NCBI GenBank assembly: GCA_041300865.1
Contig: JBFYTF010000036.1
Coordinates: forward strand, 34,604 to 98,603
Direction: 5' to 3'
DNA length: 64,000 nt
Source of the DNA: Anaerolineae bacterium
GTDB taxonomy: Bacteria > Chloroflexota > Anaerolineae > JAAYZQ01
Position 1 is the first letter of the stretch, and each line of letters begins with the position of its first letter. This document shows, one piece after another, positions 18,474 through 53,944 of the stretch. The notes beneath the pieces were generated by a model. It was not told the origin of the DNA. It ran no database searches and saw nothing but the letters and a program-made list of their open reading frames with translations. Position numbers and translations under genes: made by a program.

Positions 18474-21400
18474 CTACTGTTTCTTCTGCAACAGCCCGAG
18501 GAGCACTTTGTCTCTCGTCGCCGGCAGCGAAGTGATGCGCACGCCAATGGCGTTGTCGATAGCATTGATCACCGCGGGGGCGGTGGGCATGTAGGCTCCC
18601 TCGCCCACCCCCTTGGCCCCGAATGGGCCGCGGGGATGGGGATCCTGAACGATGATGGCCGTCACCTCCGCCGGGTTGGTGCTGCGCGGGATGGCAAGCT
18701 TGTGCAGGCTGTCGGTGAGGATCCGGCCGTCGACTTGCAGGAATTCCTCGCCGAGGGCATAGCCCAAGCCCATGACCACGCCGCCCTCGATCTGTCCTTC
18801 GACCGACGTCGGGCGGATAGGCGCCCCCGTGTCGTGGGCGGCAATGACCTTCAGCACGTCCACCTGGCCCGTTTTCTCGTCCACTTCGACGACCGCCACC
18901 TGGCAGCCATAGCAGAAGGCGGGATAGTTGGCATAGTCGTCGTCGCTGAGGCCCTTTTCCTGGCGCTGCTGAAGCGACAAGATGCGATAGGTAGGCGCGG
19001 GCACGTAGTGGTGGGCCACCTGGACCTGTTCACCGCGTTCGCGCGCCGCAGCTGCCAGGTCCGCCAGGTCTCCCAGCCGCTCCTCCCGCTCCAGGTCGAT
19101 CAGCTCTCCGTCCGCGGTGAGCTTGATGCGGGCAGCATCGGCGTTGTACACCTGGGCCGCGTACTGGAGCAGCTGGGCGTGGAACATGGTGCTCACCTCA
19201 AACGTGGCCTGGCCCGTAATGTGGGTCTGGCGCGACGCCGCGGTGATACCGCCATCCCTTCCTTCGCGCGTATCGCCGGTCACAAAATGCACCCGGTCGT
19301 AGTGGATGCCCATCACCCGGGCCGCGATCTCGCACATGGCCGAGTTGGATCCCTGGCCCAGGTCTATGGCTCCGTGGCGCAGCATGAGGCTGCCGTCCTC
19401 TTGCAGCTCCAGGGAGACGTGGACGCTGTCGTCGTTGCCGATGCCCAGGCCCACGTTCTTCATGCCGGCCGCCACGCCGATGCCCAGGCGTTTGCCGGGT
19501 TTCTGCTCGGGCAGCCGCCAGCGCCGGAGCTCTGCCTCTGCCGCTTCCAGCACCAGCTTGGCACCGACGCTTTGCTTCAGGGTCTGTCCCGTAACGAGCG
19601 TCGAGCCCTCCTGGTACATGTTCATGCGCCGCACGTCAAAGGGATCCAAGCCCAGCACCTGGGCGAGGCGGTCGACCTGCGACTCCATGGCGAACGTGAT
19701 CTGCTGCGCGCCAAAGCCACGCATCGCCCCGCAGGGCACGTTGTTGGTCCGCACCGAGACGCCGGTCACCCGGACGTTGGGGATCTCGTAGGGACCTGAG
19801 GAAAAGACCGTGGCCTGCTCGAGCACGTCGTCGGAGGTGGACCGGTAGGCACCACCATCGGCCACTAGCTGGGCCTGCAGGGCAACGATCTTGCCCTGGC
19901 GCGTCGCGCCGAGCTTGTAGTGCATCCAGAAGGGGTGCCGCTTGACGTGCATGCGGATCGATTCCGTCCGGTCCAGGACCAGTTTCACAGGCCGGCCCGT
20001 CAGGTAGGTGCCCAGGGCCAGGAACGGCTGGACCGTCAGGTCCATCTTGCCGCCAAAGGCGCCGCCCACGGGCGTCTGGACCATGCGCACCCTTTCTATT
20101 GGCAGGCCAAGGATATCGGCCAGCTGCATCCGGTCGCCCGGCGGCCATTGGGTCGCTTGATAGACGGTGACACAGTCGCCGTCCATGACGCCGATGCCGC
20201 CCTCGGTCTCGAGGAATGCGTGCTCGATGGCTTGCGTGCGATAGTCATCCTCGATGACGATCTCGGCCTGGGCAAAGCCGGCCTCGACGTCGCCCTTTTC
20301 CACCAGGGTGCGGTGAAACACGTTGTTTTCGCCCTTGAGCACCGGCGCCCCGGGCTCCAGGGACCGCTGCGGGGTGAACAGGCCAGGCAGGGGATGATAA
20401 TCTACCTTGACCCGGGCGGCCGCCGCTGCCGCCGCCTCTTCCGTCTCGGCGTACACCGCAGCCACCGGCTCGCCGACGAACAGCACCCTGTTTTCGGCCA
20501 GGACGGGCTGGTCGTAGCCCATGGAGCCAAAGATGTTCTGGCCGGGAACGTCCTTGTGGGTGATGACCTTGACCACGCCCGGCACGGCCTCGGCCGCGGT
20601 GGTGTCGATGCCCAGGATCTGGGCATGGGGGTGCTCGCTCCACACGATCTTGCCGTAGAGCATGCCCTCCAGCTGCATGTCGCCGGCGTACACCTCGCGC
20701 CCCGTCACCTGAGCAAGGGCGTCCTTGCGCGGCAGGGCTCGCCGGGTCAGCTCTTTTTTGTCGCCGCGCATCACGGCCGCGGCGTCCTGGATGGCCTCGA
20801 TGATTTTGACATAACCCGTACAGCGGCAGTAGTTGTTGCCCAACCCTTCCTTGATCTCTTGCTCGGTCGGGTCGGGGATATCGCGCAGCAGGGTAAGGGC
20901 GGCGAGGACCATGCCCGGGGTGCAATAGCCGCATTGGACGGCATCGTGGACCATGAACGCCTGCTGCACGGGGTGCAGGTTGTCCGGGTTTGCCACACCC
21001 TCGATGGTCAACACCTCGCGACCGTGGGCCTTGGCAGCGGGAAAGAGGCAGGAGACCACCGGCTGGCCATCGACCAGGACGGTGCAGGCGCCGCACTCTC
21101 CCTCGTCGCAGCCGATCTTGGTGCCGGTGAGGCCCAGGTCTTCGCGGAGGAGATGTCCCAGCGTGGCACTCGCCCCTCCTTCGACCGTGCGGATCTCACC
21201 GTTGAGACGGAACGTGATGGTGCCGCCCGCGGCGGGCTCGCTTGCCGCGCCCGACCAGGCCCGGTCCCAGGCAAAACGGCCGGCGATGGTCTGCTGCTCG
21301 CCCGACCTGGCAGCCTGGACGGCGCGCTGGATGGCACGCTGGATGAGGACCTGCAGCACCACCTCGCGGTACTCGGCGGTGGCACGCAGCGCACTGGTGC

Positions 21401-22172
21401 GCACCGTGCACACCAGGGCCGCTTCGTCGGCGGCGATGGCATAGTTCTCGTCGGTGCACGCTTCGCCTGCCAGCCAGTCCTCGGCGCACGTAGCGCGGAA
21501 GGGAGTGTCGGCCACGGGTCCCAGCGAAATGCGGATCCAGGCCAAGTGGTCGAGGTCCTCCGTCAGCTCCAGGTCCACCGCGCAGCAGGCAATGGGCAGC
21601 GACATGACCTCCCGCTTGGCCAACCGCTCGTAGGCCGAGGCCTGCCGGGGCTTGCGCCTGCGCCAGCGAAAGCGGGTGATCATCTCCCGGCTGGCATCGA
21701 GGTGCGAGCGCCCAGGCCCGGCAAAGAGGCTCGAAACGGGCAGCCACTGCCGGCCACCTTTGCCCGCCACCTCGGCCTCGGCGTCCAGCGCCAGGAGGGC
21801 GATGCTGCCGTCACCCGCCGGCTGGGCGGTCACGACGTTTCCGGCCAACGTGCCGACGTTCTGGACTGACCAGGCACCGACGTGGTGCGCCGCCTCGGCC
21901 AGGACGTACGCCTCGCAATTGACCAGGGGCGAGGTCCACAGCTGGTGATACGTGGCGTTCGCCCCCACGACGACATAGTCCCCCTCGTAGCCGATGGCAT
22001 CGATGCCGGGGATGCGCGTCGTGTCGACCAGGCACTGGGGCGCGAACTTGCCCTGTCGCACATCGAGAACCAGGTCGGTGCCGCCGGCAATGAGCCGCGC
22101 CTTGCCCTGCCACTGCTCCAACGCCGACAGCGCGTCGTCTACGGAAGTGGCCAGGTAATATTTCTCCCACAT
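18474..22172 (-). CDS. Single-polypeptide xanthine-dehydrogenase-family molybdoenzyme (FAD, 2Fe-2S and Moco domains fused)
   Basis: 1232 aa. A CoxM-like FAD domain (about aa 1-288; [12 protein letters not shown]) is followed by a 2Fe-2S domain (about aa 318-468; [24 protein letters not shown]), then a Moco domain from about aa 480. Confidence 0.85.
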
Positions 22173-22192
22173 GCTGCCTCGTGCCTCCTAAT

Positions 22193-23488
22193 CTAGTGCT
22201 GGCGCCCGTTTCGCGCGCCTTGCCACAGCCGGGCAATGGTCGCCATTGCCTGCTCTCGTAGCTCCTCTTCGTCTGCGGTCTGGACCTGGCCATCGGCCAC
22301 CACCACCCGGCCATCGACGATCACGTGGCTCACGTCGCCTCCCGCCGCGCCCACCACCAAGTGATAGACGGCGTTTTCGGGCAGCAGCGGCGACGGTGCC
22401 GAGTTGCGCAGCAGGACCATGTCGGCCAGGGCGCCGGGCCTCAAGGCGCCGGCATCGAGGTGGAGCGCGCGCGCCGCCCGCGTGGTGTGCAGGCTCAGGA
22501 CGTCCTCTGCCGAGACCTCGCCGGGAGTCTGCAGCGAGTGCAGCAGCAACGTCGTGCTGAGGTTGACAAAGGGGTCAAAGGCCCGCACAAAACCATCGTC
22601 ACCCAGGCTGGCATTGACCCCGGCTTTGAGCATCTTGCTCAACGGAGCGGCTCCGGTGCCAATCTCCATGTTCGACACCGGGTTGTGGGACACCTGCGTG
22701 CCCGTCTCGGCCAGCACGCCGATCTCCTCGTCGTCGAGGTGAACGCACTGCGATGCGATCGTATCCTGGTCGAGAACTCCGAGCTCGTGCAGGTAGTGCA
22801 CCGGTCGCTTGCCAAATCGCTGCAGCGTATCCTGCACGTGGTAGGTGCCCTCGGAGACGTGGAGCTGGAAGAGGGCGTTGTGACGGCAGGCGATCTCTTT
22901 TGCCTGGCGAATGTAGGGACCACTGCACGAGAACGTGGTGTGCACGCTCATCACGCCGCGCACGCGCCCCCGCAGCGACAAGATCCGCTCGTTTTCCTCG
23001 AGCAGTTTCTGGGCGATCTCTTCTCCTGCACGTTGGGTGGCCTCGTTGGAGACAAAGGCCCGGGCGCCGGTTTTCGCTACGGCTTCCGCCTCGGCGAGCA
23101 TGAAGCCCGGTGCCGCGTAAGGGGACTCCATGACGTCGCAAAAGCAGGTAAAGCCGCTCTTGAGGTGCAGCAGCGAGGCATAAGCGGCGAGGCTGGCCAC
23201 GTCCTCGGCGCTAAGCATGTCTTCGACAAAGGGCCACCAGTACTCTTTCAGGAAGGGCCAGAACCCCGCCGGTGCCGGTACCGGGTGGCCGTAGGCCACC
23301 AGGCCGTGCAAATGGGTGTGGGTGCTGATCAGCCCCGGCATCAAGATGCCGTCGACGTACAGATCGGTCTCCTGGTCTCTCGCGCCGGCCAGGACACTAA
23401 CGATCTTGTCGCCCTCGATCTCGACCACAGGATCGCGGATCACGCCCTGTTCGGTCATCGTCACCGCCAGCCGCGCACCAACCTTCAT
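22193..23488 (-). CDS. Metal-dependent amidohydrolase (SsnA / chlorohydrolase / aminohydrolase family)
   Basis: Motifs LISTHTHLHG and QLHVSEG. AGGAGG lies 6 nt before the ATG at 23488. Confidence 0.8.
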   Translation of the reverse strand: MKVGARLAVTMTEQGVIRDPVVEIEGDKIVSVLAGARDQETDLYVDGILMPGLISTHTHLHGLVAYGHPVPAPAGFWPFLKEYWWPFVEDMLSAEDVASLAAYASLLHLKSGFTCFCDVMESPYAAPGFMLAEAEAVAKTGARAFVSNEATQRAGEEIAQKLLEENERILSLRGRVRGVMSVHTTFSCSGPYIRQAKEIACRHNALFQLHVSEGTYHVQDTLQRFGKRPVHYLHELGVLDQDTIASQCVHLDDEEIGVLAETGTQVSHNPVSNMEIGTGAAPLSKMLKAGVNASLGDDGFVRAFDPFVNLSTTLLLHSLQTPGEVSAEDVLSLHTTRAARALHLDAGALRPGALADMVLLRNSAPSPLLPENAVYHLVVGAAGGDVSHVIVDGRVVVADGQVQTADEEELREQAMATIARLWQGARNGRQH

Positions 23489-23525
23489 AGTTTCCCTCCT
23501 TTCTCTCCCTGTGCCCGCTCTCGGC

Positions 23526-25235
23526 TCACGCCGGCTGGAACAGGCGAGCCAGGTCCAGCTGGGCGAGTTTTTCTGAGCAGGGACGGCCCTGCTCATCCCA
23601 GCCCCGGATGCGGTAATAGGCGGCCATCCCCTCGCGGTAGACGTCCGGCTTGAGCATGCCGTCCATGATGCGACGGGGCAGGGTGTCGTGCGAGGCGTCG
23701 ACGCCGCGCTTGACGTTGAGCAGGCGCTCCAGGTTGTAGATCCGCTCGCCGGCTACATCAAGCTCCTCGTCACTGAACTCGGTGCCCAGGACGGCGCTCA
23801 GCGCGGAGGCGTAGAACGGGCGCAGCGTTCCGGCGAGGAACGTGCAGACGATGAGCGAGTCGCGGACGCAGCCGGCATCGTGGTAGTTCGCGACCATTTG
23901 GGCCAACTCTACCCCGGAGAACTCGGTCCCCGACAGCTCGTCGGCGACCGTCCAGGCCCGGCTGTGACAGCCGCCGCGGTTGGCCGTGCTGTAGGAGATG
24001 GCCATGCCCGTGAGCTTGCGCGGGTCGTAGGCGGCCAGCTCCAGCCCCTTCACCTGCATGGCGTAATCCACTCCCAGGCTGCGGGCCGCAGCCCGAGTGC
24101 CCTGGCCCAGGAGGTCGCCCTCAGCCTGCCGGTAGCCGATCTTGTGCACCAGGTCCAGGATGTTGGAAGGATCGTCCAGGGTGCCGGTGTATTCCCGGTA
24201 GAAGGCCACCGCGTTGCCGGTAGAGATGGTGTCGACACCCAGATCGTTGCAGAGGTTGTTCGCCCGGGCGATGAGGGCATAGTCGTCGACGCGGTTGTCA
24301 CCGCCAAAGGCCCACACCGTTTCGTATTCGGCCGCTTCCAGCTCCAGGCCATCGACCCGGACGTGGAGACGACAGCGGACGGGACAGGAGGGGCAGGTCG
24401 TGCGCTTGTAGACAAACTCCTCGACGATGCGCTCGCCGTAGAGGTTCGCAGCCCCGGCGAAATAGCGCTCCCGGTGATTCCCCGTGGGGAAGGCGTGGAA
24501 CTCGTTGACGGGCGCCACCAGGTTCGGGGTGCTGATGGGGCCTTGCACCTCCATCAAGAAGCTCGACTCGCGGATGGCGCGCAGTGCATCACGGCTGACG
24601 ACCTTCAGGCGGTCCGGATCGGCGACAGGGATCTCGCTGTTGCCTCGCGCGACGATGGCCTTGACGTTCTTGCTGCCCAGGATGGCGCCCATCCCGCACC
24701 GGCCGGCTGAATGGCTCTCGTCGCCGCGCACGTTGGCCATGGCCACCAGCCTCTCGCCGGCCGGGCCGATGACCACTGCTCGCAGGTTGCCCTTTTCCTC
24801 CCGCTCAAGGATGGTCCGTGCCTGGGAGACCGTCAGGCCCCACAGGTCAGGACGCGGAAGGACCTCGACCTTGTTCTCGTCGATATAGACAACCGAGGGC
24901 TGCGGGGCCTGTCCTTGGAGCACGAGAGCGAGGGTATCGGTGCGGGCCAGGGCCGGGCCAAAGTCACCGCCAAGCCAGCTGCCGGCGCACAGCCCCGTGA
25001 GGGGAGATACGCCAAAGAAGCACGCGCGGTTGGCTCCGGGGAAGCCGGTGGCGGTGAGGCCGCCGGTGGCGATGATCAGCGGCAGATCCGGGTCCAGGGC
25101 CGGCAGGGCCAGGTCGGCGCCGGCCATGAGGCGTGCTCCCAGGCCGAGGCCGCCCAGGTACTGCCCTTGCATGGTTGGATCCACGGCTTGGCTCTGAGGC
25201 GACCCAGAACAGAGATCCAGACAGCGAATGTGCAT
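23526..25235 (-). CDS. Aldehyde:ferredoxin oxidoreductase (AOR) family tungsto/molybdopterin enzyme
   Basis: AOR N-domain (LGGLGLGARLM, IIATGGLTATGFPGANR) and a CPSCPVRC cluster motif. AGGGGGA lies before the ATG at 25235. Confidence 0.8.
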   Translation of the reverse strand: MHIRCLDLCSGSPQSQAVDPTMQGQYLGGLGLGARLMAGADLALPALDPDLPLIIATGGLTATGFPGANRACFFGVSPLTGLCAGSWLGGDFGPALARTDTLALVLQGQAPQPSVVYIDENKVEVLPRPDLWGLTVSQARTILEREEKGNLRAVVIGPAGERLVAMANVRGDESHSAGRCGMGAILGSKNVKAIVARGNSEIPVADPDRLKVVSRDALRAIRESSFLMEVQGPISTPNLVAPVNEFHAFPTGNHRERYFAGAANLYGERIVEEFVYKRTTCPSCPVRCRLHVRVDGLELEAAEYETVWAFGGDNRVDDYALIARANNLCNDLGVDTISTGNAVAFYREYTGTLDDPSNILDLVHKIGYRQAEGDLLGQGTRAAARSLGVDYAMQVKGLELAAYDPRKLTGMAISYSTANRGGCHSRAWTVADELSGTEFSGVELAQMVANYHDAGCVRDSLIVCTFLAGTLRPFYASALSAVLGTEFSDEELDVAGERIYNLERLLNVKRGVDASHDTLPRRIMDGMLKPDVYREGMAAYYRIRGWDEQGRPCSEKLAQLDLARLFQPA

Positions 25236-25376
25236 AACCGTTCCCCCTTGATCTACGCTACTCATCTTCGAGCTTGAGCACGGACTGGGAAAGACGCTTG
25301 CGGGCCGGGAACAGACCTATGGGCCAAAGAGCGTTGCACGCATGGCTGACAAGCCGGCACCGGGCAGACATTGTAT

Positions 25377-25405
25377 ATTCTACAATATATACTGGCTGCT
25401 GTCAA
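25377..25405 (-). promoter_or_regulatory. Near-consensus sigma-70-type promoter (TTGACA-17-TAGAAT) with an overlapping palindrome
   Basis: On the minus strand, TTGACA is at 25405-25400 and TAGAAT at 25382-25377. ATTGTA-N5-TACAAT lies at 25370-25386. This is an AT-rich island in GC-rich DNA, about 140 nt upstream of the AOR start. Confidence 0.7.
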
Positions 25406-25460
25406 AGTCTGTCCTGCTCCTGGGATAAGGTAGAGCCGTGTAATCCTCCTGCTCCTCCGA

Positions 25461-26408
25461 TCAACGTTTGCCTTTGTTATACGGGAAGCCCAGTGCTGCT
25501 GGCGGCCGTGTGCGGCCGGTCAAACCGACGAACGTCAGGAAGGTCAACAAGTACGGAATCATCAGAACCAACTCGTACGGTATCTGGACGTCCAGCGCCT
25601 GCAGCCGGAGTGTAGAGGCATCCGCCGCACCAAAAAAGGCACACGCTAGCGCGACGCGCCAGGGATCCCATCTACCAAAGATGACAGCAGCGAGTGCAAT
25701 AAATCCGCGCCCGGCGCTCATGCCCTCCAAAAACATGTTTGACTGTCCCAAAGACAGGAAAGCCCCTCCAGCTGCCGCCAGTGCGCCGCACAGGATTGTG
25801 AATGCATAGCGCCAAAAAGCGACGTTGACACCCACCGTGTCGGCTGCCAGAGGCTGCTCGCCTACTGCCCGAATTTTCAAGCCCCACGTGGTCTTGTATA
25901 GGATGAACGCGCTGACAGGAACCAGGACATATGCAACATAGACGAGGGGCACGTGCTGGAAAAAGATCTCGCCGACGACCGGGATACTGCTGAGATAAGG
26001 TACCTCCCACACCTCGAAGGACTCGACGGTGACCCGCTGACCGAGCTCGAAAAAGCTGCGAGACAAGAAGGTCGTCAAGCCTGCAACGGCTATGTTGATG
26101 GCCGCCCCACTGACCACCTGGTCCCCCCTCACCGTCACAGCGACAAAGGCGTGAACAAGGGCCACCAGGCCACCACAAACCATCGCCACCAGCAGACCCA
26201 GCCAGGCATTGCCGAACAAGTAGGCACCCAAGACTCCGCCGAAAGCACCGCTCAACATCATGCCTTCAAGGCCGATATTGAGAATTCCGGTGCGTTCGCT
26301 GAAAACCTCACCGACGGCGGCAAAGATCAGAGGTACTGCAAACCGTACAGCCGCGGCCCAGAAGGCGACTGCGAACAAATTGCTCAGCAGGCCCACAGCT
26401 TCAGTCAC
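25461..26408 (-). CDS. ABC transporter permease (BMP/nucleoside-type system, second permease)
   Basis: Multi-TM protein with ERTGILNIGLEGMM. The GTG at 26408 overlaps the upstream stop. Paralog of 36731-37666. Confidence 0.8.
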   Translation of the reverse strand: MTEAVGLLSNLFAVAFWAAAVRFAVPLIFAAVGEVFSERTGILNIGLEGMMLSGAFGGVLGAYLFGNAWLGLLVAMVCGGLVALVHAFVAVTVRGDQVVSGAAINIAVAGLTTFLSRSFFELGQRVTVESFEVWEVPYLSSIPVVGEIFFQHVPLVYVAYVLVPVSAFILYKTTWGLKIRAVGEQPLAADTVGVNVAFWRYAFTILCGALAAAGGAFLSLGQSNMFLEGMSAGRGFIALAAVIFGRWDPWRVALACAFFGAADASTLRLQALDVQIPYELVLMIPYLLTFLTFVGLTGRTRPPAALGFPYNKGKR

Positions 26409-27504
26409 ATTTCCTCGCTTCTTCGCGCCAAAGCATGCCAAGCTGTATTGCCCCGGCTATCGCCACAAAGAGTATAGCGACTCCCTGGATGAAGGCCGCG
26501 ACTGAAGAAGGGACCCCCATCGTTCGCTGCATCATATTCGAGCCGGCCCGCAACGCGCCAAAGAAAATCGCGGCCGCAACAACGCCAAATGGGTGTCCTC
26601 GGGCCAGAAGGGCAATTGCGATAGCATCGTACCCATAACCGGGTGAGAAAAAGTCACTGAGCCGGTGCTGGACTCCTAGCACCTCCATGATGCCCGCCAT
26701 GCCAGCCAGACCGCCACTGACCAGCATGGAAACCGTGATGCTGCGAGTAGGCGAGATGCCGGCGTGCCGAGCAGCGCGCGAACCAAAACCCACGGCACGT
26801 ATCCGGAAGCCCAACGTCGTATGATATAGCACGACATACATAATGACGGCAGCCGCCAACGCAATCGGCAACCCGACGTGAAGGCGTCCTGCTTTCCAGA
26901 TAATGGGCAGTTGCGATGTGACGGGGACGATCTCTGTCTGTGGGTAGTAAGCACCCGGTTCCTGGATTGGGCCATGCACCATGTAGCTCACGAACCAGAA
27001 AGCAACATAGTTCAGCATGATGGTCATAATGATCTCGCTGAGCCCACGTTTCGCCCGCAAATAACCGGGGATGCCTCCCCAAATGGCGCCGCCAACAAAG
27101 CTGCCCAGTACGCAGAGCGGGATGTGCAACCAGGCGGGCAGACCCACCGCAAAGAGGGCAACAAGCGTTCCCACCAGAGCCCCAACATACAGCTGCCCCT
27201 CGGCCCCGATATTAAACAGAGAGCAGTGCAGGGCAAACGCCACTCCAAGGCCTGCCAGGATGAGCGGTACCGACTTTTGGAGAGTGAGGCCTACCTCCTG
27301 CCAACCGCCCATCGTGCCCTTGAGCATAGCCCCGTAAGCCGCTAACGGATCAACCCCAGCAACCAGGAGAGCCGCCGCCCCAACTAACAGGGCCAAGAGC
27401 ACTGCCCAGATCGGACCAAACGTTCGCAAGGACCAAAGTGCTCCCCTCAAGAGCTGGTCCGCTAAGGACCGGTGAGTACCCAATCGTTCTGCTTCTGCTG
27501 CCAT
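26401..27504 (-). CDS. ABC transporter permease (BMP/nucleoside-type system, first permease)
   Basis: Multi-TM protein with SLFNIGAEGQLYVGAL. Paralog of 37629-38873. Confidence 0.8.
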   Translation of the reverse strand: MAAEAERLGTHRSLADQLLRGALWSLRTFGPIWAVLLALLVGAAALLVAGVDPLAAYGAMLKGTMGGWQEVGLTLQKSVPLILAGLGVAFALHCSLFNIGAEGQLYVGALVGTLVALFAVGLPAWLHIPLCVLGSFVGGAIWGGIPGYLRAKRGLSEIIMTIMLNYVAFWFVSYMVHGPIQEPGAYYPQTEIVPVTSQLPIIWKAGRLHVGLPIALAAAVIMYVVLYHTTLGFRIRAVGFGSRAARHAGISPTRSITVSMLVSGGLAGMAGIMEVLGVQHRLSDFFSPGYGYDAIAIALLARGHPFGVVAAAIFFGALRAGSNMMQRTMGVPSSVAAFIQGVAILFVAIAGAIQLGMLWREEARKCD

Positions 27505-27530
27505 AGCTCTCTGTCTCTGGCTCCAGCTCT

Positions 27531-29060
27531 TTACAGAGCTGTCGATAGTCCCAGCGATGTGCCGGCCATCATCAGCCCAAGCTGTTCTATATCTGCATCC
27601 TTGTTCTCGATGATGCCCATGATCCTCCCCTCGTAGATGACCGCAATTCGATCGGCGAGCATCAGAATCTCTTCCAGCTCAGTGGAGATGAGCAGGATTG
27701 CGGCTCCCCGATCACGCTGCTCCAACAGACAGCGATAAACGTACTCGGTTGCGCCCACATCAAGACCACGCGTGGGCTGAAACGCCAGAACGAAGGAAGG
27801 GGTGCGGCTCAGTTCTCGAGCCAAAACGATCTTTTGCTGGTTCCCGCCGGACAGCGACCGGGTGACCATCTCCGGTCGATTGGGACGGATGTCGTACTCT
27901 TCTCCGAGAGCGAGCGCCTGCTTGCGCACGGCCCTTCGATTCAGAAACGAAAACCGCGAGTTGGGTCTTCGGTCAACGGAATCGAGGATCAAATTCTCTC
28001 CGATGGTAAAGTCCATGATCAGGCCAAGTTCGTGACGATCTTCAGGAATACGCGCAACGCCCAGCGATACGAGCTGCTTGGGTCCCAAGTGGGTCACATC
28101 TTGTCCCTTGACCTTCACGCTTCCCGTCGAAGCCTTTTGCAGGCCTGACACAATGGCCGCCAGTTCCTGTTGACCATTGCCGTCCACACCCGCTACGGCA
28201 AGGATCTCACCCTCACACACCTGAAACGATACGCCGGAGAGCAGCGGCTTGTCTCCGTGGTTGTGCAGTGTCAGGTCGCCCACCTCCAGGACAGGGTGAC
28301 GCGACCCGTGAACGCTGTTTCTTGAGACCTGAAACACAACTTCGCGCCCGACCATCATACGGGCCAGTTGAGCCTTGTCCGTCTTGTCGCGCTCAACGGT
28401 GTCGACCACCCGGCCGTCTCTCAGCACCGTGATCCGGTCACTGATCTCCATGACCTCGTTTAGCTTATGAGAGATAAAGATCACCGATTTTCCCTGTGCC
28501 GTGAAACTCCGCAAGATATCGAACAAGTCTCGGACTTCACCGGGCGTGAGTACAGCCGTTGGTTCGTCCAGAATCAGTAGCTTGGCATCGCGGTAGAGTG
28601 CCTTCATGATTTCGACTCGCTGGCGCACGCCCACCGGCAGGTCGCCAATGACTGCGCACGGGTCCACCGAGAGCCCATACCGCTCCGAGAGTTCCCGGAC
28701 CGCTGTCTCAACCTTGTTCAGATCAAGGAGAGGCTCCTTGGGCAGGCGCGTTCCCAGTACAATGTTTTCCGCCACTGTGAAGGCCGGGATGAGCATGAAG
28801 TGCTGGTGCACCATGCCGATTCCGCAGGCGATTGCAGCGCTAGGCGACGATATACTGACGCGCTTGCCATGCATGTACACCGAACCGCTGTCTGCCTCAT
28901 AGAGTCCATAAAGGACATTCATGAGTGTCGTTTTGCCTGCCCCATTTTCACCGAGCAAAGCGTGCACTTCGCCACTCTCAACCTCAAGGGAAACGCAGTC
29001 GTTGGCGTTGACACCGGGAAATCGTTTGGTTATTCTCTCCATGGACAGCAGAGCAGGCAT
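27531..29060 (-). CDS. ABC transporter ATP-binding protein with two ATPase domains
   Basis: Walker A GENGAGKTT, signatures LPVGVRQRVEI and LSGGNQQK. ATG at 29060 (MPALLSMERITKRF). Confidence 0.85.
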   Translation of the reverse strand: MPALLSMERITKRFPGVNANDCVSLEVESGEVHALLGENGAGKTTLMNVLYGLYEADSGSVYMHGKRVSISSPSAAIACGIGMVHQHFMLIPAFTVAENIVLGTRLPKEPLLDLNKVETAVRELSERYGLSVDPCAVIGDLPVGVRQRVEIMKALYRDAKLLILDEPTAVLTPGEVRDLFDILRSFTAQGKSVIFISHKLNEVMEISDRITVLRDGRVVDTVERDKTDKAQLARMMVGREVVFQVSRNSVHGSRHPVLEVGDLTLHNHGDKPLLSGVSFQVCEGEILAVAGVDGNGQQELAAIVSGLQKASTGSVKVKGQDVTHLGPKQLVSLGVARIPEDRHELGLIMDFTIGENLILDSVDRRPNSRFSFLNRRAVRKQALALGEEYDIRPNRPEMVTRSLSGGNQQKIVLARELSRTPSFVLAFQPTRGLDVGATEYVYRCLLEQRDRGAAILLISTELEEILMLADRIAVIYEGRIMGIIENKDADIEQLGLMMAGTSLGLSTAL

Positions 29061-29094
29061 CCGTTCTCCCGAGCTTGATGACTTTGGAGAGCGA

Positions 29095-29123
29095 TTGACC
29101 AGGCGAGCGTTCAGCCTGGTCAA
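29095..29123 (-). promoter_or_regulatory. Intercistronic hairpin between the binding-protein and ATPase genes
   Basis: Perfect 9-bp inverted repeat ttgaccagg / cctggtcaa with an 11-nt loop and no U-tract. Confidence 0.5.
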
Positions 29124-29141
29124 CCGCATCTCAGTTCATAT

Positions 29142-30182
29142 CTAATCCTGGGGCGGGACGTCGATCCGTGGCACTTCTGCCTTGCCGGAAATGATGTCCT
29201 GCCGGACCTGTTCTACTTGAGCGGCGACGTCGTCAGGCACGGTACCGTGATAGGGCGCGATGTCAACAGCGCCAACTTCCAGGCCGTACATCTGAATCTC
29301 TCCAGCAAAGTCACCCGCCAAGATACGCTTGACGCCCTCAACCATGAGCGTGCCATAGTCCACAATGAAGCTAGTAAGAACAGTCTCGGGTGCGAGCGAG
29401 TTCTGATCGAAGCCAAAACCGATGGCATACACCCCCTTTTCCTGGCAGCCATCGATGACGCCGACTCCAGCTTCGTTGGCGATGTGAAAAATGACGTCTA
29501 CGTCAGTGCTGATCTGGGCCAAAGCGGCTTCCTTTGCCCTGGCTACATCATCCAAGGTGCCAATATAGGCAGTAGTTGCTTCTGCGTCCGAATTGACGTA
29601 TTGGGCGCCAGCTCCAAAAGCCTCAATGCCGCGGACGATGATCGGGAACTCCATGCCGCCCACAGCACCGACCCTGTTCGTCTTGGTCATCAGGCCGGCC
29701 ACAGCACCGACAAGGAACCCGGCTTCCTCAAAGACCGGCTCAAGGGACGCGACATTCGGTCCGGAAACGTTGCCGTTGTTGACGAGGTAGTAGATGTCGG
29801 GGTATTCTGGTGCAATCTTGGCTGCTGGTTCTCCGAACTCGAAGCCATGGCCAATAATGATGTCATAGCCCTCGTCGCTGAAGCTGCGATAGGTTTCGTC
29901 GAACTCTGCCGGAGGAACCGATTCGGCAAAGGCGACTTCGAGACCCAACTCGCTCTCGATTCTCTTCAAGCCCTCATAGGCCATCGCATTGAAGCTTTGA
30001 TCGCTGATGGGGCCGATAAGTACCAATGCCACTCGGGGCTTTTCCTCGGTAGCCTCCGCTGCTGTTGGCGCGGCTGCCGGAGCTACTGTTGGCTCCGGCT
30101 CCGGCGTGGAACCGCAAGCAGCGATCATTGCCAGCAGCATTGCCAGAACAAGTACAAGACTAGCACCCTTGGTCCGTTTCAC
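29142..30182 (-). CDS. BMP-family ABC substrate-binding lipoprotein (nucleoside/purine-type)
   Basis: Lipobox LLAMIAAC. Motifs IGPISDQSFNAMAYEGL and IIIGHGFEFGEPA. GTG at 30182 preceded by AAAGGAGAGAG. Confidence 0.8.
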   Translation of the reverse strand: MKRTKGASLVLVLAMLLAMIAACGSTPEPEPTVAPAAAPTAAEATEEKPRVALVLIGPISDQSFNAMAYEGLKRIESELGLEVAFAESVPPAEFDETYRSFSDEGYDIIIGHGFEFGEPAAKIAPEYPDIYYLVNNGNVSGPNVASLEPVFEEAGFLVGAVAGLMTKTNRVGAVGGMEFPIIVRGIEAFGAGAQYVNSDAEATTAYIGTLDDVARAKEAALAQISTDVDVIFHIANEAGVGVIDGCQEKGVYAIGFGFDQNSLAPETVLTSFIVDYGTLMVEGVKRILAGDFAGEIQMYGLEVGAVDIAPYHGTVPDDVAAQVEQVRQDIISGKAEVPRIDVPPQD

Positions 30183-30396
30183 TTTCTCTCTCCTTTTTGT
30201 TTCAAGCGTTCTTTTCGAACCAGCGGACGGCTGCGAAAAACGCACATGGACTTTTGCGCCGACCCCCATGGATGTGTCGGGCACAGCGTCTCATCCCGCA
30301 ATCCCCTTATCAGACTCTTGTTGGGCTACGCCTCCTTCTCTGGTGCTAAGCAAAGACCCGCACCCCACTTTGCGTCCGAGCCTCGCTCCAGCCGCC

Positions 30397-32616
30397 TTAC
30401 TGGCCCCGCATTTCCCGCCATACCCGTTCCGGCGTGGCTGGCAGGTTCGGGATACGGACGCCTACTGCGTCGTAGATGGCATTGAGAACAGCCGGGGCAG
30501 TGGTCACGAGAGTGATCTCACCCAATCCTTTAGCCCCAAAGGGCCCGGTTGGATCAGGCACCTCAACAATGCGGCTGTCCAGCTCCAGGGGCATGTCGCG
30601 AACAGTCGGAACATAGTACTCACTCAGCCGGCCTGTGCGAACCTGGCCGTCCTCCTGGATGAACTCCTCCATGAGGGCATATCCAACTCCCATGTGAACG
30701 CCGCCGGCAACCTGTCCAAAGGTGGTTTGCGGGTTGAAGACATGTCCGGCATCCGTGGCTGCCCACACCTTCAGGATCTGCACCTCACCTGTCTCGCTAT
30801 CCACTTCCAGGAGAACGACCTGCGTACCGAAGGAGTAGCTATAATAGGGGTTACACTGGCCCGTCTCGGGATCGAAACTTGTTGTAGGCCGCTCTCTGAG
30901 GGGATGATGCGTGTAGGTGGCAGTGATAACGTCTTGCCCAGTTTCTTGGCGTAGAACGTCCTCCCACTGTTGTTGTGCTTGGGCACAGGCCCGAAGAAGA
31001 GCATTGCCGGCGATGTAGGTCAGACGAGAGGCTGATGCCGAACCCCCGTCGGGAACGTGGGCGGTGTCGACCACGCTGATCTGTACCTGATCCAGTTGCA
31101 GGTGCAAGGCCCCGGCGGCGATTTGCTGCAGGATCGTGTGTACGCCCTGGCCCATCTCCACTGCGCCCACACTGACTTGTGCCTTGAAGATGTGACCCGA
31201 CTCGTCAAGGCGCAGTTCGACATCCACCGTGCACTTGTCGTCGAACCCAAAGGGAAACCCTACGTTCTTTTGCGCACTGGCAACGCCGATACCGCGCCGC
31301 CGGTTCGGGGCTGAGGGCGTTCCAATGTCCGGGCGGACCCAACGGTCGCCGTCTCGCGGTGACCACCCGGCGGCGAGAGCAGCCTCCCGCAAGGTCTGTT
31401 TTATCCCCGTTCCGGCCGGCATCGGATGCCCCAACACGGTCTCGCTGCCGGCTTCGACCATGTTCTTCAGGCGGAACTCGACGACATCCATGCCCAACGC
31501 TTCAGCCAGCCGATCCATGTGCTGCTCGCAGGCAACGGGTGCTTGGGCCGTGCCGAACCCGCGCATCGCCATCGCCACCGCGTTGTTTGTGTGGACGGTA
31601 TAGGCGTCGATCTTGACGTTTGGCGTGACATAGGGGCCGGCCAACGCACAGACAGCACAGCCCAGCACCAAGCCGCTGGTGGACGCATACGCTCCCGCAT
31701 CAGAAATCGCCTCAATGTCCATGGCAAGGAGCCGGCCATCGCGCGCGGCACCGACCTTATAGCGGAAGAAGAAGCGATGGCGCTTACCTGTGCAGCGCAT
31801 CGTCTCTTCTCGCGAGAAGGTCATCTTTACCGGCATCCGCAGAACGTAGGCGCAGAGGGCCAGGAGGTGCTGGATATACATGTCCTCGCGTCCACCGAAT
31901 GCCCCACCAATGGCGGGAACGATCTCGCGCAACTGATCCTTGTCGAGATGGAGCATGTGCGAGATTTGACCCAGATCGTCGTGAGGCCACTGAGCAGCAG
32001 CGATCACCGCGATCCGACCTTCGTTGTCAACATACCCTATCCCGGCCTCTGGCTGAAGATATCCGTGCTCGATTGCTTGTGTGCTGTACGTACTCTCGAT
32101 GACCACGTCGCACTCGGCAAACGCCGCTTCGACGTTGCCCTTCCGCACCGGAATGTGAGCAAAGACATTCGTGCCCATTGCTTCGTGCACCAAGGGAGCG
32201 CCTGGCTGCATTGCGTCTCGTGGGTCAGTGAGAACTGGGAGCACTTCATAGTCCACCCGGACCAAGTCCGCGGCTTGACGGGCAATTCGTTCTGTTGTGG
32301 CGACGACAATTGCGATGCGATCCCCGAGCCACCGTACCTTGTCGCCTTCGGCGATGAGGACGGGTTGATCCTTCACAAATATCCCGTAGACGTTGACGGG
32401 AACGTCACAGTAGGTGATGACTCGGGCTACGCCAGGCACAGATTCCGCGGCGCTGGTATCGATCTTGAGGACCTTTGCATGGGGATGCCTGCTCCACACG
32501 ACCGCTCCATACAGCTGGCCGGGCATGTTATGGTCTTGGGGATACTTGTTCGCTCCTTGAACTTTGCCACGGGCGTCAACGCGTTCAACCGATTTACCGA
32601 GGACAGAGCTGCTCAT
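30397..32616 (-). CDS. Xanthine-dehydrogenase-family molybdopterin-binding large subunit (CoxL-like)
   Basis: MSSSVLGKSVERVDARGKVQGANKY at the N-terminus; GFGTAQ and GGGFGGRED-like motifs. AAAGGAGG lies before the ATG at 32616. Confidence 0.85.
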   Translation of the reverse strand: MSSSVLGKSVERVDARGKVQGANKYPQDHNMPGQLYGAVVWSRHPHAKVLKIDTSAAESVPGVARVITYCDVPVNVYGIFVKDQPVLIAEGDKVRWLGDRIAIVVATTERIARQAADLVRVDYEVLPVLTDPRDAMQPGAPLVHEAMGTNVFAHIPVRKGNVEAAFAECDVVIESTYSTQAIEHGYLQPEAGIGYVDNEGRIAVIAAAQWPHDDLGQISHMLHLDKDQLREIVPAIGGAFGGREDMYIQHLLALCAYVLRMPVKMTFSREETMRCTGKRHRFFFRYKVGAARDGRLLAMDIEAISDAGAYASTSGLVLGCAVCALAGPYVTPNVKIDAYTVHTNNAVAMAMRGFGTAQAPVACEQHMDRLAEALGMDVVEFRLKNMVEAGSETVLGHPMPAGTGIKQTLREAALAAGWSPRDGDRWVRPDIGTPSAPNRRRGIGVASAQKNVGFPFGFDDKCTVDVELRLDESGHIFKAQVSVGAVEMGQGVHTILQQIAAGALHLQLDQVQISVVDTAHVPDGGSASASRLTYIAGNALLRACAQAQQQWEDVLRQETGQDVITATYTHHPLRERPTTSFDPETGQCNPYYSYSFGTQVVLLEVDSETGEVQILKVWAATDAGHVFNPQTTFGQVAGGVHMGVGYALMEEFIQEDGQVRTGRLSEYYVPTVRDMPLELDSRIVEVPDPTGPFGAKGLGEITLVTTAPAVLNAIYDAVGVRIPNLPATPERVWREMRGQ

Positions 32617-32664
32617 GCGGCCTCCTTTGCCCTGACTTCTCAAGACGACAACGTTCCGGGTGCC

Positions 32665-33144
32665 TTAGGACCCCGCATGGTCTGCCAACTCGGTCGCCGC
32701 AGCCTTCACCGCATCGATGATCTGATAGTATCCGGTGCACCGGCAGAGATTGCCGGACAACCCGTCCATGATCTCCTGATGGCTTGGCCTTGGCTTTTCT
32801 GCTAACAGCGCCACCGTTGACATTACGAAGCCGGGCGTGCAGTAGCCACACTGAATTGCAGAGTGCTCCACAAAGGCTTTTTGCACAGGATGAAGCTGCC
32901 CTTCCGGAGCAAGCCCTTCAACGGTGCTAACCGAACGCCCGTGGGCCTTGAGTGCGGGATAGATACAACTCAGGACGGGTTCGCCATCTACCAACACAGT
33001 ACAGGCTCCGCACTCGCCCTCCTCGCATCCAACCTTGGTGCCTGTTAGGCCAAGCCTATCACGCAAGACCTGAGCCAGCATCTCTCCCGGATCGATCTCG
33101 ACGGCTGCAACCCTGTTGTTGATATTCATCTCGAGAAGGGTCAT
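32665..33144 (-). CDS. (2Fe-2S)-binding small subunit (CoxS-like)
   Basis: Motifs [18 protein letters not shown] and CRCTGY. Confidence 0.9.
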   Translation of the reverse strand: MTLLEMNINNRVAAVEIDPGEMLAQVLRDRLGLTGTKVGCEEGECGACTVLVDGEPVLSCIYPALKAHGRSVSTVEGLAPEGQLHPVQKAFVEHSAIQCGYCTPGFVMSTVALLAEKPRPSHQEIMDGLSGNLCRCTGYYQIIDAVKAAATELADHAGS

Positions 33145-33260
33145 GGCTTACTCCTCCGTCGTTCTTGTCCGCGGCCACTGCGCGGAGCAACTAACCTTCA
33201 GTCAGACATCGAGATGGCTGAGACCATATCGCAATCCGATGGCTTCCGTAATACCGGATC

Positions 33261-34172
33261 TCAGGCGCTGGGTGTCGCATCGGCCAGGGCTTGGCTCAAG
33301 GCACGGCGCACCAAGACTTCGACCATCTGCTTGCGATAATCGGCAGACCCGCGCAAGAGACTGTCTCGAGGTGCGGCGGTTTCAAATGCCTTCTTCGCAG
33401 CTGCAGCGATAACCTGCTCGCTTACCGGAGCATTCAGCAGCACATCCTCGGCCTCGCGGGCCCGAAATGGAACCGGCGCCACAGGCCCAACCGAGATCCT
33501 GGCGTCCGCGAAATGACTATCCTCGACCCTCACGACAACGGCGACGCATACGCTGGGCAGGATCAGGGCCTGACGGCGCGCCAGCCGCTGGAAGGACCAG
33601 CTCGTGGACCCTGGCAGAGGCCGGAAGCGGAGGGCCGTTACTATTTCCTGGCAAGGATCCACGGTACACTTACCGACACCGGTGTAAAAGCTACTGATTG
33701 GCACCCATCGCCGGCCACACCGGTCTAGTATCTCTACATCTGCGTCAAGGGCAAAAAGCGCTACGGCTCCATCGGCAGCGGGCAGAGCGTTTACTACGTT
33801 GCCGACTAGGGTAGCCACGCGTCGAATTTGAGGACCGCCAATGGCCGCACACGCGCGGGCTAATATGCCCGCCTTGGCCTGAATGAGAGAGGAAGCCGCC
33901 ACTTGGGCATGTGTTACCTGTGGACCTATCAGGATCCAGCCGTCTTGTTCTTCAAGGAAGCCCAAACCTGGAACACGTGTGATGTCGACCATCACCTGGC
34001 TGTCGCACTGGCCGCGCTGAGCCTGGAGCACAAGATCCGTGCCGCCAGCGATGATGCGAGCTCGGCCATTATGGTGCTGTAACATTTCCAGGGTTTCGCT
34101 CAGGGTTGCGGGGAAGAGGTACTCGGTCCAGAATGCAGGTTTCCGGTTCTCATTCTCTATCACAGGACTCAT
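33261..34172 (-). CDS. FAD-binding medium subunit of a molybdopterin dehydrogenase (CoxM-like)
   Basis: Motifs [11 protein letters not shown] and VGNVVNALPAADG. Confidence 0.85.
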   Translation of the reverse strand: MSPVIENENRKPAFWTEYLFPATLSETLEMLQHHNGRARIIAGGTDLVLQAQRGQCDSQVMVDITRVPGLGFLEEQDGWILIGPQVTHAQVAASSLIQAKAGILARACAAIGGPQIRRVATLVGNVVNALPAADGAVALFALDADVEILDRCGRRWVPISSFYTGVGKCTVDPCQEIVTALRFRPLPGSTSWSFQRLARRQALILPSVCVAVVVRVEDSHFADARISVGPVAPVPFRAREAEDVLLNAPVSEQVIAAAAKKAFETAAPRDSLLRGSADYRKQMVEVLVRRALSQALADATPSA

Positions 34173-34304
34173 TGTGCACTCCCTCGTACAGAAGTGGCCC
34201 TCGGAAACAGAGCGATGCTGCTGTTCGGCCCAACCTGCTTGGCCGATCCGCTTGCCGTTCCAATTACGAACGGCTCTAGCGAACGGTGGTTTTGTATATA
34301 ATAT

Positions 34305-34333
34305 AGTATATCATATGTCGCACAAGTTGTCAA
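34305..34333 (-). promoter_or_regulatory. Near-consensus promoter (TTGACA-17-TATACT, with TG at the extended -10 position)
   Basis: On the minus strand, TTGACA is at 34333-34328 and TATACT at 34310-34305. TTGTATAT lies on the plus strand at 34292-34299. The site is about 125 nt upstream of the CoxM-like start. Confidence 0.7.
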
Positions 34334-34365
34334 GATCTCGGTAGTCGCCATGAACAAAGACCTTC

Positions 34366-35718: not shown

Positions 35719-36722
35719 CGTTGATCCTCCTGTTCGAGATACGACGGCCGGTTCGCCTTCTCGCCCCACCGGCCCCTCCTGATTAGGTAGGCCAGCGCCC
35801 CCTGAAGCTCCCGTTGCCACGCCTCCGCCGCCTCGGCAGTCCAGTCGTAGAACCCCTTGCCCGTCTTGACCCCTAGCTCCCGCCTGTCAACCTTGTCCAC
35901 GAGCAGGGGCGACGGCGACGCATTCGCGGCCAGGTGGGGCAGGAGGTGTTTCTGGATCTGGAGCTCCAGGTCCCAGCCGATCGGCTCGGCGATCTCGAAC
36001 GGCCCGGCAAAGGCCAGGCGCCGCCCGAAGCCGTCTTTCACCGCAATGTCCACGTCCTCGGCGCTGGCGATCCCTTGCTCCACCAGGTACAACGCCTCCC
36101 GCTGCAGAGCAAATTGGAGCCGGTTGGCGACAAAACCAAAGCACTCCTTCCGCACCACGATCGGCTGCTTGCCCATGCCGCGCAGCAGCCCGCAGGCCGT
36201 GTTGACGGTCGCGCCGGACGTAGCCGGGCCGGCAACGATCTCGACCAGGGGCAGGAGCGACGGTGGGTAGAAAAAGTGCATCCCCACGACCCGGTCCGGC
36301 CGGCCTGTCGCCGCGGCCAGCAGGCTGGGCATAAAGGTCGAGGTGTTGCTGGCCAGAATGGTCCGCGCGGGGCAGAGCCGGTCCAGCTCGCCAAAGACCT
36401 CCCTCTTGAGCGCCAAGTCTTCGTACACGGCCTCCACGACCAGGTCCACCTCTTGCGCCGCCTCGGGCAGCACGGTGGTCGTGCTTATCCTCGCCATGGC
36501 TGCCGCCGGGGCATCGGCCGGGACAATCCCCCACCCGGCGAGCTGGGCCAGGTTCGCACCAATCCGCTGCACCGCGTGCTCCAAGGCCAGCTGGCCTACG
36601 TCGTGAAGCACGACCTCATGTCCGGCCAGGGCGAACTCCTGGCCGATGCCGTGCCCCATGAAGCCTGCGCCTACGACGGCGACGCGCTGGATGCTCCCGG
36701 TGCTCATGGCCGTCTGTTCCAT
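35715..36722 (-). CDS. 3-hydroxyacyl-CoA dehydrogenase family NAD-binding protein
   Basis: Motifs VAVVGAGFMGHGIG, SNTS and GFVANR. Start taken at MEQTAMST (36722). The long N-terminal extension in the track overlaps the permease gene. Confidence 0.8.
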   Translation of the reverse strand: MEQTAMSTGSIQRVAVVGAGFMGHGIGQEFALAGHEVVLHDVGQLALEHAVQRIGANLAQLAGWGIVPADAPAAAMARISTTTVLPEAAQEVDLVVEAVYEDLALKREVFGELDRLCPARTILASNTSTFMPSLLAAATGRPDRVVGMHFFYPPSLLPLVEIVAGPATSGATVNTACGLLRGMGKQPIVVRKECFGFVANRLQFALQREALYLVEQGIASAEDVDIAVKDGFGRRLAFAGPFEIAEPIGWDLELQIQKHLLPHLAANASPSPLLVDKVDRRELGVKTGKGFYDWTAEAAEAWQRELQGALAYLIRRGRWGEKANRPSYLEQEDQR

Positions 36723-36730
36723 GCCTGCAC

Positions 36731-45136: not shown

Positions 45137-45164
45137 GTCTGCCTCATTTCGAGAGATGACGACA

Positions 45165-46808: not shown

Positions 46809-46824
46809 GATGCGTCTCCCTGTG

Positions 46825-47832: not shown

Positions 47833-47872
47833 CGCTGATTCCTCTCCAGCCTGTTTGCTTGGCGCTGCGCGC

Positions 47873-48874: not shown

Positions 48875-48875
48875 C

Positions 48876-50579: not shown

Positions 50580-50586
50580 AGCTCGC

Positions 50587-53917: not shown

Positions 53918-53944
53918 AGTGTCTCCTCCATTCTTCTTCCGGTC

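Follow-up and report, generated by a model that had tools for sequence, protein, structure and literature searches.

Three AT-rich promoters in a catabolic gene cluster of an Anaerolineae bacterium, probably fused to the operator of a local GntR/FCD regulator

The closest known counterparts of the system presented here are FadR-subfamily (FCD/VanR-like) GntR repressors such as DipR from Alcaligenes faecalis (PMC11472048) and Atu1419 from Agrobacterium fabrum (PDB 6z74), each of which acts on its own promoter and on others within a catabolic cluster. FadR-subfamily regulators are commonly autoregulated and occlusion is their usual mode of action (PMC4494728, PMC11472048). The operators of this subfamily are rich in A/T, have TKGT/ACMA boxes and frequently include an extra half-site at 7-12 nt from the centre (PMC4494728); the canonical operator is written TNGTNNNACNA or TKGT-N3-ACMA (Rigali consensus as cited in PMC11472048; PMC4494728). 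Operators of the GTATAC type are known from DipR (PMC11472048) and operators with repeated boxes from NanR, which recognizes (GGTATA)3 (PMC8012715). Here we analysed a stretch of 64 kb from an uncultured Anaerolineae bacterium (contig JBFYTF010000036.1), referred to below as the window, which contains three AT-rich promoter sites (A, B and C) and the gene of a GntR/FCD regulator (62281-62979). From motif scores and comparison of genomes, we consider it likely that each of these AT-rich islands combines a sigma-70-type promoter with the operator of this regulator, and that the three units together form an autoregulated regulon.

The window regulator shares with DipR and Atu1419 the architecture composed of a winged helix-turn-helix (wHTH) domain and an FCD domain with conserved histidines. 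As in these systems, a single regulator would control several promoters of a catabolic cluster, its own among them, and the predicted operators are likewise A/T-rich, contain GTATA/TATAC and overlap the region from -35 to +1. The similarity in sequence is remote (the best PDB match is 7xp0 with E = 1e-22, and Atu1419 is found at 3e-14) and the host is here an uncultured Anaerolineae bacterium. By analogy, the window system may work like DipR, VanR or the Atu1419-type FCD repressors of catabolic clusters.

The elements of the three sites are given below. All coordinates are positions in the window, and the three promoters are read on the minus strand. The positions and sequences that a first-pass annotation had attributed to these promoters were all found to be correct on direct reading of the regions.

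25405-25377, minus strand: promoter of site A, TTGACA-GCAGCCAGTATATATTG-TAGAAT
25400-25405, minus strand: -35 hexamer of site A, TTGACA
25377-25382, minus strand: -10 hexamer of site A, TAGAAT, after a 17-nt spacer and embedded in the operator
25369-25391, minus strand: predicted operator of site A, TATATATTGTAGAATATACAATG, with a footprint kept in loci L180 and L181
25370-25386, minus strand: core palindrome of site A, ATTGTAGA-A-TATACAAT
34333-34305, minus strand: promoter of site B, TTGACA-ACTTGTGCGACATATGA-TATACT
34328-34333, minus strand: -35 hexamer of site B, TTGACA
34305-34310, minus strand: -10 hexamer of site B, TATACT, after a 17-nt spacer and with TG upstream
34290-34319, no strand assigned: operator-like element of site B, a degenerate palindrome that covers the -10 hexamer and the start region
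34293-34315, plus strand: best operator match of site B, TGTATATAATATAGTATATCATA
63054-63026, minus strand: promoter of site C, TTGACA-AATGCGCGAGTATATTG-TATATT
63049-63054, minus strand: -35 hexamer of site C, TTGACA
63026-63031, minus strand: -10 hexamer of site C, TATATT, after a 17-nt spacer
63018-63040, minus strand: predicted operator of site C, AGTATATTGTATATTATATTTCG, with two intact left boxes and a degenerate right arm
62281-62979, minus strand: GntR/FCD regulator of 232 amino acids, the presumed repressor, with an N-terminal wHTH and a C-terminal FCD domain

All three sites display the features of sigma-70-type promoters, namely TTGACA, a 17-nt spacer and a -10 hexamer with at least 5/6 identities to TATAAT, and genes of the same strand begin 40-135 nt downstream. 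The arrangement TTGACA-N17-TAnnnT is present four times in the window, where 0.06 matches are expected; the one additional match (29008-29036, plus strand) is antisense within an ABC ATPase gene and is devoid of the AT-rich element. In a promoter scan of the positions 20001-40000 and 44001-64000, sites A, B and C are the sole 11/12 matches. They were also said to be the only AT-rich islands of the window, and a scan for at least 70% A+T in 30 nt indeed gives exactly three: 25362-25400, 34280-34330 and 63008-63054.

A matrix of 23 positions was built from five foreign GntR promoters, the window being excluded from the training. In the 64 kb, this matrix reaches at least 19 bits at three places only, which are site A (37.6 bits), site C (25.2 bits) and site B (24.9 bits). 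The next unrelated match in the window has 10.7 bits, and the maximum over 30 local shuffles was 18.3 bits. When each AT island was shuffled with preservation of its composition, the observed score was reached in 0/2000 shuffles at every site. Among 1.28 Mb of unrelated loci we detected 16 clusters with at least 18 bits, none of them with 32 bits or more. Site A is as strong as the training sites of the matrix and, by its score, appears as an unambiguous match to the operator derived from the foreign genomes.

The comparison with other genomes was based on orthologous loci or contigs (designated by L-numbers) obtained from genome and metagenome collections and from exact-protein look-ups. The orthologues of the regulator form a sharply bounded family, with identities from 50 to 91% followed by a jump of the E-value from 1e-53 to 1e-31. 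They are labelled Anaerolineae or Anaerolineales, and identical loci are found in several metagenome-assembled genomes (MAGs; GCA_0413006xx-0413008xx). In the closer orthologues, the gene has its own promoter TTGACA-N16/17-TAnnnT with the element in the same register. This is the case in seven other genomes or contigs, weaker in L008, and the operator of site C occupies a position orthologous to those of the six others:

L172, 91% identity to the window regulator: AATATATTCTATACTATATAATA
L171, 76% identity: TGTATATTGTAGAATATACAATA
L089, 76% identity: TGTATATTGTATAATATACAATT
L176, 72% identity: AGTATACTGTATAATATACAATG
L174, 72% identity: TATATATTGTATACTCTAGAATA
L182, 68% identity: TGTATATTATATAATCTATTATA

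The element is also present ahead of orthologues of the aldehyde:ferredoxin oxidoreductase (AFOR) family gene that follows site A. In several genomes these AFOR orthologues share contigs with GntR orthologues. The AFOR promoter of L181 (AFOR 83%) is TTGACA-GCCCGAAGAATATATTG-TAGAAT-ATATAAT and scores 41.5 bits; that of L180 (AFOR 76%; same contig as L171) is TTGACA-CTCTGGATTGTATATAG-TAGAAT-ATACACT and scores 30.7 bits. The alignment of the AFOR upstream regions from three genomes reveals a classical phylogenetic footprint: conservation starts at TTGACA and ceases at about +10, the intergenic DNA on either side cannot be aligned, and the leader of site A is not conserved beyond the promoter. In L180, a second operator-promoter with 38.5 bits is located ahead of an amidohydrolase-Bmp-ABC operon. 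The same motif is thus found at GntR, AFOR and amidohydrolase-Bmp promoters in several genomes, as an autoregulated regulon predicts. The first-pass annotation had proposed that the three promoters share an operator of the local GntR protein, and this proposal is supported by the orthologue promoters, by the AFOR operons and by the scan with the foreign matrix. Finally, an unbiased counting of k-mers in 12 upstream regions outside the window recovered TGTATA/TATACA in 9/12 and ATTGTATA/TATACAAT in 6/12, in addition to the promoter hexamers.

Nine sites outside the window gave the operator consensus tgTATATTGTAtAaTATAcAATa. Three TGTATA-like boxes can be distinguished in this operator of about 23 bp, two of them direct and the third inverted. 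The two inner boxes form the core, an 8-1-8 palindrome of 17 bp (ATTGTATA-A-TATACAAT) of which the -10 hexamer is the centre, and an additional direct TGTATA box is located 7 bp upstream of this palindrome. The whole operator extends from about 10 nt after the -35 hexamer, through the -10 hexamer, to the region of the transcription start. The perfect palindrome ATTGTA-N5-TACAAT, recognized earlier at 25370-25386 in site A, was correctly read and is part of the longer ATTGTAgA-A-TATACAAT, which represents the consensus palindrome with one mismatch.

The octamer TTGTATAT and paired GTATAT hexamers had initially been taken as the common element of the three sites. The octamer is indeed found three times in the window against 0.07 expected, solely at sites A, B and C, and GTATAT is present 10 times against 2.9 expected, 6 of these 10 being paired at the three sites. 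The orientations do not agree: the GTATAT pair is inverted in site A and direct in sites B and C, and the orientation of the octamer and its position relative to the -10 hexamer differ between sites A and B on one hand and site C on the other hand. The octamer was rejected as a functional unit because its orientation and register vary among the sites.

Concerning the operators of known regulators, those of the DipR/Atu1419 type comprise 6-10 bp, with GTATAC or ATGTATACAT, whereas the operator described here has about 23 bp, three boxes and the arrangement TTGT-N7-ACAA. It resembles the canonical FadR-type operator by being palindromic and A/T-rich, by its terminal TTGT/ACAA and by a flanking half-site at about 7-12 nt from the centre. 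It had also been taken to fit the T.GT...AC.A style of this subfamily, which it does not: the GT and AC boxes are 7 nt apart and not 3, and the -10 hexamer constitutes the palindrome centre. Other exceptions to the spacing are recorded within the FadR subfamily (PMC4494728). NanR from E. coli (PMC8012715), also a member of the FadR subfamily, has three close (G/T)GTATA hexamers inside the promoter and an N-terminal extension before the wHTH, and about 28 residues precede this domain in the window regulator. The repeats of NanR are all direct, with a phasing of 8-9 bp, and accommodate three dimers; here two boxes are direct with a phasing of 7 bp and the third one is inverted. NanR is absent among the PDB sequence matches to the window regulator at E <= 1e-5.

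The window regulator is recognized by the Pfam models of the GntR domain (PF00392, 57.9 bits for a cut-off of 27) and of the FCD domain (PF07729, 99.8 bits for a cut-off of 24.3). All its relatives in the PDB are FCD proteins (7xp0, McbR 4p9f, TM0439 3sxy/3fms and Atu1419 6z74). Among 41 orthologues, His150 and His192 are invariant and His214 is conserved in at least 90%; these three residues align with histidines in 7xp0. According to the literature on the family, such histidines form the metal triad of the FCD domain, and the equivalent residues His196 and His218 of DipR are functionally required for the response to the effector (PMC11472048). The recognition region LGMSATPVREVLRILE is conserved among the orthologues. 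It is changed in the orthologues at 52-57% identity (SPTPIREALR versus SATPVREVLR and PQKDLTE versus KQQELAE), which have a different palindrome in the spacer, ATATATGA-N2-TCATATAT, at the same promoter position (L010, 9700-10000; L011, L012, L093, L094 and L096 at equivalent positions). Recognition helix and operator thus change in concert, as expected if this regulator reads the element. These distant orthologues are transcribed divergently from a paralogue of AFOR (30% identity to the window AFOR), and the promoter of this paralogue bears a related element. A Pfam scan of about 50 open reading frames (ORFs) detected no other DNA-binding regulator in the window. The earlier statement that the GntR protein is the only regulator therefore holds for DNA-binding regulators, and has to be qualified by the presence of a PAS-domain protein at 75-1079 (plus strand).

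Three other explanations of the AT-rich element were considered. It is very improbable that the element merely reflects a generic promoter architecture of the lineage, with AT-rich spacer and discriminator around strong sigma-A promoters. The element does overlap and include the -10 hexamer, and its conservation is therefore partly that of the promoter. Paralogous GntR loci of other Chloroflexota (L013, L071 and L083) also have AT-rich spacers, but these examples adjoin paralogous FCD regulators, which suggests that they are operators too. A generic architecture is at odds with the at least 12 promoters TTGACA-N16-18-TAnnnT of the same or related contigs that are found in ordinary, G+C-rich surroundings with less than 5 bits; element-free consensus promoters of this kind are located in L171 (303), L172 (3087), L182 (2911) and L008 (4610). 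Across genomes, conservation extends outside the hexamers, to GTATATTG within the spacer and to the ATACAAT that follows the -10, and the scores of the islands are never attained after shuffling. We also judge it improbable that the element is the operator of another factor, either the HutC/UTRA-type GntR encoded about 6 kb past the window end or a regulator encoded elsewhere in the genome. HutC-type operators share GT-A/T-rich-AC cores (PMC4494728), and the co-localization with the FCD-GntR gene is circumstantial only. However, the motif is present at the own promoter of the FCD-GntR in at least 7 genomes or contigs, where no HutC-type neighbour is found within 10 kb; the promoter region of the HutC-type gene in L001 contains a consensus promoter and TGATAT-type repeats and no match of at least 12 bits; and the altered recognition helix of the distant FCD orthologues is accompanied by a correspondingly altered palindrome.

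The third explanation accepts sites A and C as true operators but not site B, whose likeness would be due to AT-richness and whose XDH/Bmp cassette would lie outside the regulon; it is unlikely without being negligible. With 24.9 bits, the best match of site B is in the opposite orientation, its low-GC3 segment (G+C content at third codon positions) is absent from L181 and possibly represents a recent acquisition, and no syntenic orthologue was found among the XDH homologues retrieved. On the other side, none of the 2000 shuffles of the B island reaches its score, a palindromic operator makes orientation largely irrelevant, and the corresponding slot upstream of AFOR in L180 is occupied by the amidohydrolase-Bmp-ABC operon with its strong operator-promoter. 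The XDH FAD-subunit homologues P0250 and P0254 (67-70% identity), which belong to unrelated LarA operons and served as negative controls, display neither the promoter nor the motif.

The assignment of the three sites to the GntR/FCD regulator remains the reading that we prefer, and several observations weigh against it. Sites B and C reach only about 25 bits, and 18 bits or more arise about once per 80 kb of unrelated DNA; with such moderate scores, their assignment rests partly on their position at a consensus promoter and, for site C, on orthology. The XDH homologues retrieved for a footprint of site B are non-syntenic paralogues. The AT-rich operator DNA admits two palindromic registers, and the model of boxes is not unique. 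The boxes do not conform to the spacing TNGT-N3-ACNA that is typical of the FadR subfamily. In L168 and L178, the orthologues (78% identity) carry a more degenerate element, rich in TATAA repeats, and the other palindrome of the distant orthologues indicates that the motif is lineage-specific.

In the proposed mechanism, the regulator without effector, as a dimer or a higher-order assembly, would sit on the operator and block the formation of the open complex. Three units would be repressed: the regulator gene itself with the ECF-transporter module (site C), the XDH-like and Bmp-ABC operon (site B) and the long AFOR-led catabolic operon (site A). Binding of a metabolite of the pathway to the metal-containing FCD domain would then release the regulator. 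Repression by occlusion is expected from an operator that runs from the last part of the spacer over the entire -10 hexamer to the start site. Repression and its relief by a metabolite are deduced here from the position of the operator and the behaviour of the family; for DipR, the relief by the pathway substrate is known. More broadly, the analysis shows the sequence elements, their non-random occurrence, their conservation at orthologous promoters and their presence together with the regulator gene, whereas protein binding, the sign and stoichiometry of regulation, the effector and the limits of the transcription units are inferred. The near-perfect operator of site A would provide a tight control of the AFOR operon; sites B and C, much weaker, suggest a leakier control, which in the case of the regulator's own unit would allow a basal synthesis of repressor. 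Concerning stoichiometry, one dimer may bind the inner palindrome, or at least two dimers may also use the flanking box. Precedents for multiple dimers are the extra half-sites (PMC4494728) and the three dimers on (GGTATA)3 in NanR (PMC8012715).

In addition to the autoregulatory site, a single weak internal site (L174, 16207-16229) was found within 10 kb on each side of the GntR orthologues. This region of L174 (16180-16240) contains GGTATACAATATAATATAC in a weak promoter TTGGAA-N17-TAATAT, between a DUF5591-like gene and an aminotransferase gene. At the equivalent position, the window has a URO-D-like gene and no such site. No operator was found in the spacers between GntR and PrpD genes of L168 and L178.

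Other promoters next to GntR-family genes were noticed in the course of the analysis. In L001 (2436-2909, about 6-7 kb past the right end of the window), the gene of a HutC/UTRA-type GntR protein and MttB/MtmB-like methyltransferase genes are oriented divergently. Between them are two consensus promoters with TGATAT-type repeats (GATGATATAAT and ATATGATATGATATC), which probably represent a separate operator system. This HutC-type protein was rejected as cognate factor, its own promoter being without the motif and its gene being absent from the other loci. In MAGs of other Chloroflexota, paralogous FCD-type GntR genes (L013, near 9847; L071, near 9874; L083, near 8462) are preceded by TTGACA-N17 with AT-rich spacers, and promoter-fused operators may be a common design in Chloroflexota.

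Nearly all genes of the window are on the minus strand, the exception being the PAS-domain gene. The genes downstream of the three sites are the following (those after sites A and B identified with Pfam):

23526-25235, minus strand: AFOR family gene (569 amino acids), first gene after site A, with a 5' leader of about 135 nt
22193-23596, minus strand: amidohydrolase, after AFOR
18474-22172, minus strand: fused FAD-FeS-Moco (molybdenum cofactor) XDH, after the amidohydrolase
25461-34172, minus strand: site B operon
33261-34172, minus strand: XDH-like FAD subunit, site B operon
32665-33144, minus strand: 2Fe-2S subunit, site B operon
30397-32643, minus strand: Moco subunit, site B operon
29142-30284, minus strand: Bmp substrate-binding protein, site B operon
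27531-29129, minus strand: ABC ATPase, site B operon
26401-27504 and 25461-26441, minus strand: two permeases, site B operon
56451-61919, minus strand: ECF-type transporter module and DUF5591-like gene, directly downstream of the GntR gene
60849-61919, minus strand: ECF T component
59053-60852, minus strand: ECF double ATPase
58260-58928 and 57548-58228, minus strand: two small membrane proteins of the ECF module
56451-57443, minus strand: DUF5591-like gene

The start codon ATG of the GntR gene is preceded by GGAGGAGG, and the leader from site C has about 40 nt. The order GntR then ECF module is also found in L008, L092, L171, L174 and L176, and the ECF module and the DUF5591-like gene are probably co-transcribed with GntR from site C. 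Many catabolic genes lie beyond them. Orthologues of the GntR gene always adjoin cluster modules, either ECF/DUF5591/aminotransferase or PrpD-aconitase-PrpF-SCS-HMGL. Between the GntR gene and the ECF T component, a non-coding spacer of 362 nt (61920-62280) is well conserved with L172, the 91% orthologue, and is far shorter elsewhere (143 nt in L171 and 21 nt in L174); it contains no Rfam match and no AT-rich promoter. At gathering thresholds, no Rfam match was detected anywhere in the window; the leaders of 125-135 nt of sites A and B and the GntR-ECF spacer are therefore no known riboswitch. In the two stretches of 20 kb examined (20001-40000 and 44001-64000), the candidates for intrinsic terminators were no more numerous than expected from shuffled sequence.

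Further genes downstream of site A extend down to 1188 and encode an aminotransferase, an isochorismatase, a CN-hydrolase, a DHO_dh-like protein, PrpD, OTCase, aconitase, PrpF, SCS-like, HMGL-like and PreT/PreA-like proteins. The order AFOR-amidohydrolase-fused XDH-aminotransferase-isochorismatase-CN-hydrolase is kept in L180 and L181; it is followed in L181 by an intact DHO_dh gene and in L180 by a short DHO_dh-like ORF, and then in both by PrpD. Among ten proteins of the site A operon compared with NCBIfam, none was clearly at the equivalog cut-off, and the OTCase model only marginally reaches its own. The XDH at 18474-22172 (minus strand) is a single chain of 1232 amino acids (about 1243-1247 in L180 and L181) with the order FAD-binding, 2Fe-2S, Moco. 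In eukaryotic XDH, the domain order is FeS-FAD-Moco.

The segment 25160-35815 of the window (10.6 kb) is missing from L181, which on both sides of it is colinear with the window at 83% identity (L181 3-9745 corresponds to window 45551-35815, and L181 10079-21713 to window 25160-13558). This segment comprises an amidohydrolase of 484 amino acids, site B, the XDH trio and the Bmp-ABC transporter, and its GC3 (about 0.65) is lower than that of the adjacent genes (about 0.85). The segment resembles a cassette that was inserted between the 3HCDH gene and promoter A together with an operator-promoter of its own. Elsewhere in the window, a protein of 671 amino acids (40370-42385, minus strand; 668 amino acids in L181) has two tandem Bmp (PnrA-like) substrate-binding domains.

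A series of about 48 consecutive genes occupies the minus strand from 1188 to 63999; it contains three consensus promoters only, and no terminator within it is convincing. Their products include a tungsten-type AFOR, two XDH-like enzymes, six amidohydrolases (one of them truncated where the window stops), reductive-pyrimidine-like enzymes, a PrpD/aconitase/PrpF/SCS/HMGL module and ECF and Bmp transporters. The modules ECF/DUF5591/aminotransferase/OYE, AFOR/XDH/amidohydrolase, PrpD/OTCase/aconitase/PrpF/SCS/HMGL and PreT/PreA-like recur beside GntR orthologues in other Anaerolineae contigs. The pathway of this cluster may be an anaerobic catabolism of nucleobases or N-heterocycles, and our literature searches found no description of the cluster or of the regulon. 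We advance only tentatively, and with more doubt than confidence, a wider interpretation in which one FCD regulator would switch on, from three promoters, a conserved one-strand supercluster of uncultured Anaerolineae (about 48 genes in about 60 kb) for a possibly undescribed anaerobic degradation of N-heterocycles or nucleobases. Its tripartite, non-canonical operator, with the -10 hexamer as palindrome centre, would be read by more than one dimer.

The logic of the regulon is very probably that of a standard autoregulated GntR repressor, and in this respect the prediction is sound and ordinary. Its unusual operator spacing and arrangement of boxes add to what is known of DNA recognition by FadR-type wHTH dimers, and the distant orthologues provide a case where recognition helix and operator change together. 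With its E. coli-like promoters, the repressor-operator pair is suited to heterologous testing, and it could be used as a biosensor for the inducing metabolite and hence for the pathway substrate. To our knowledge, almost no transcription factors of Anaerolineae have been characterized experimentally. The predicted regulon would give a regulatory handle on a large and conserved catabolic cluster of these uncultured bacteria.

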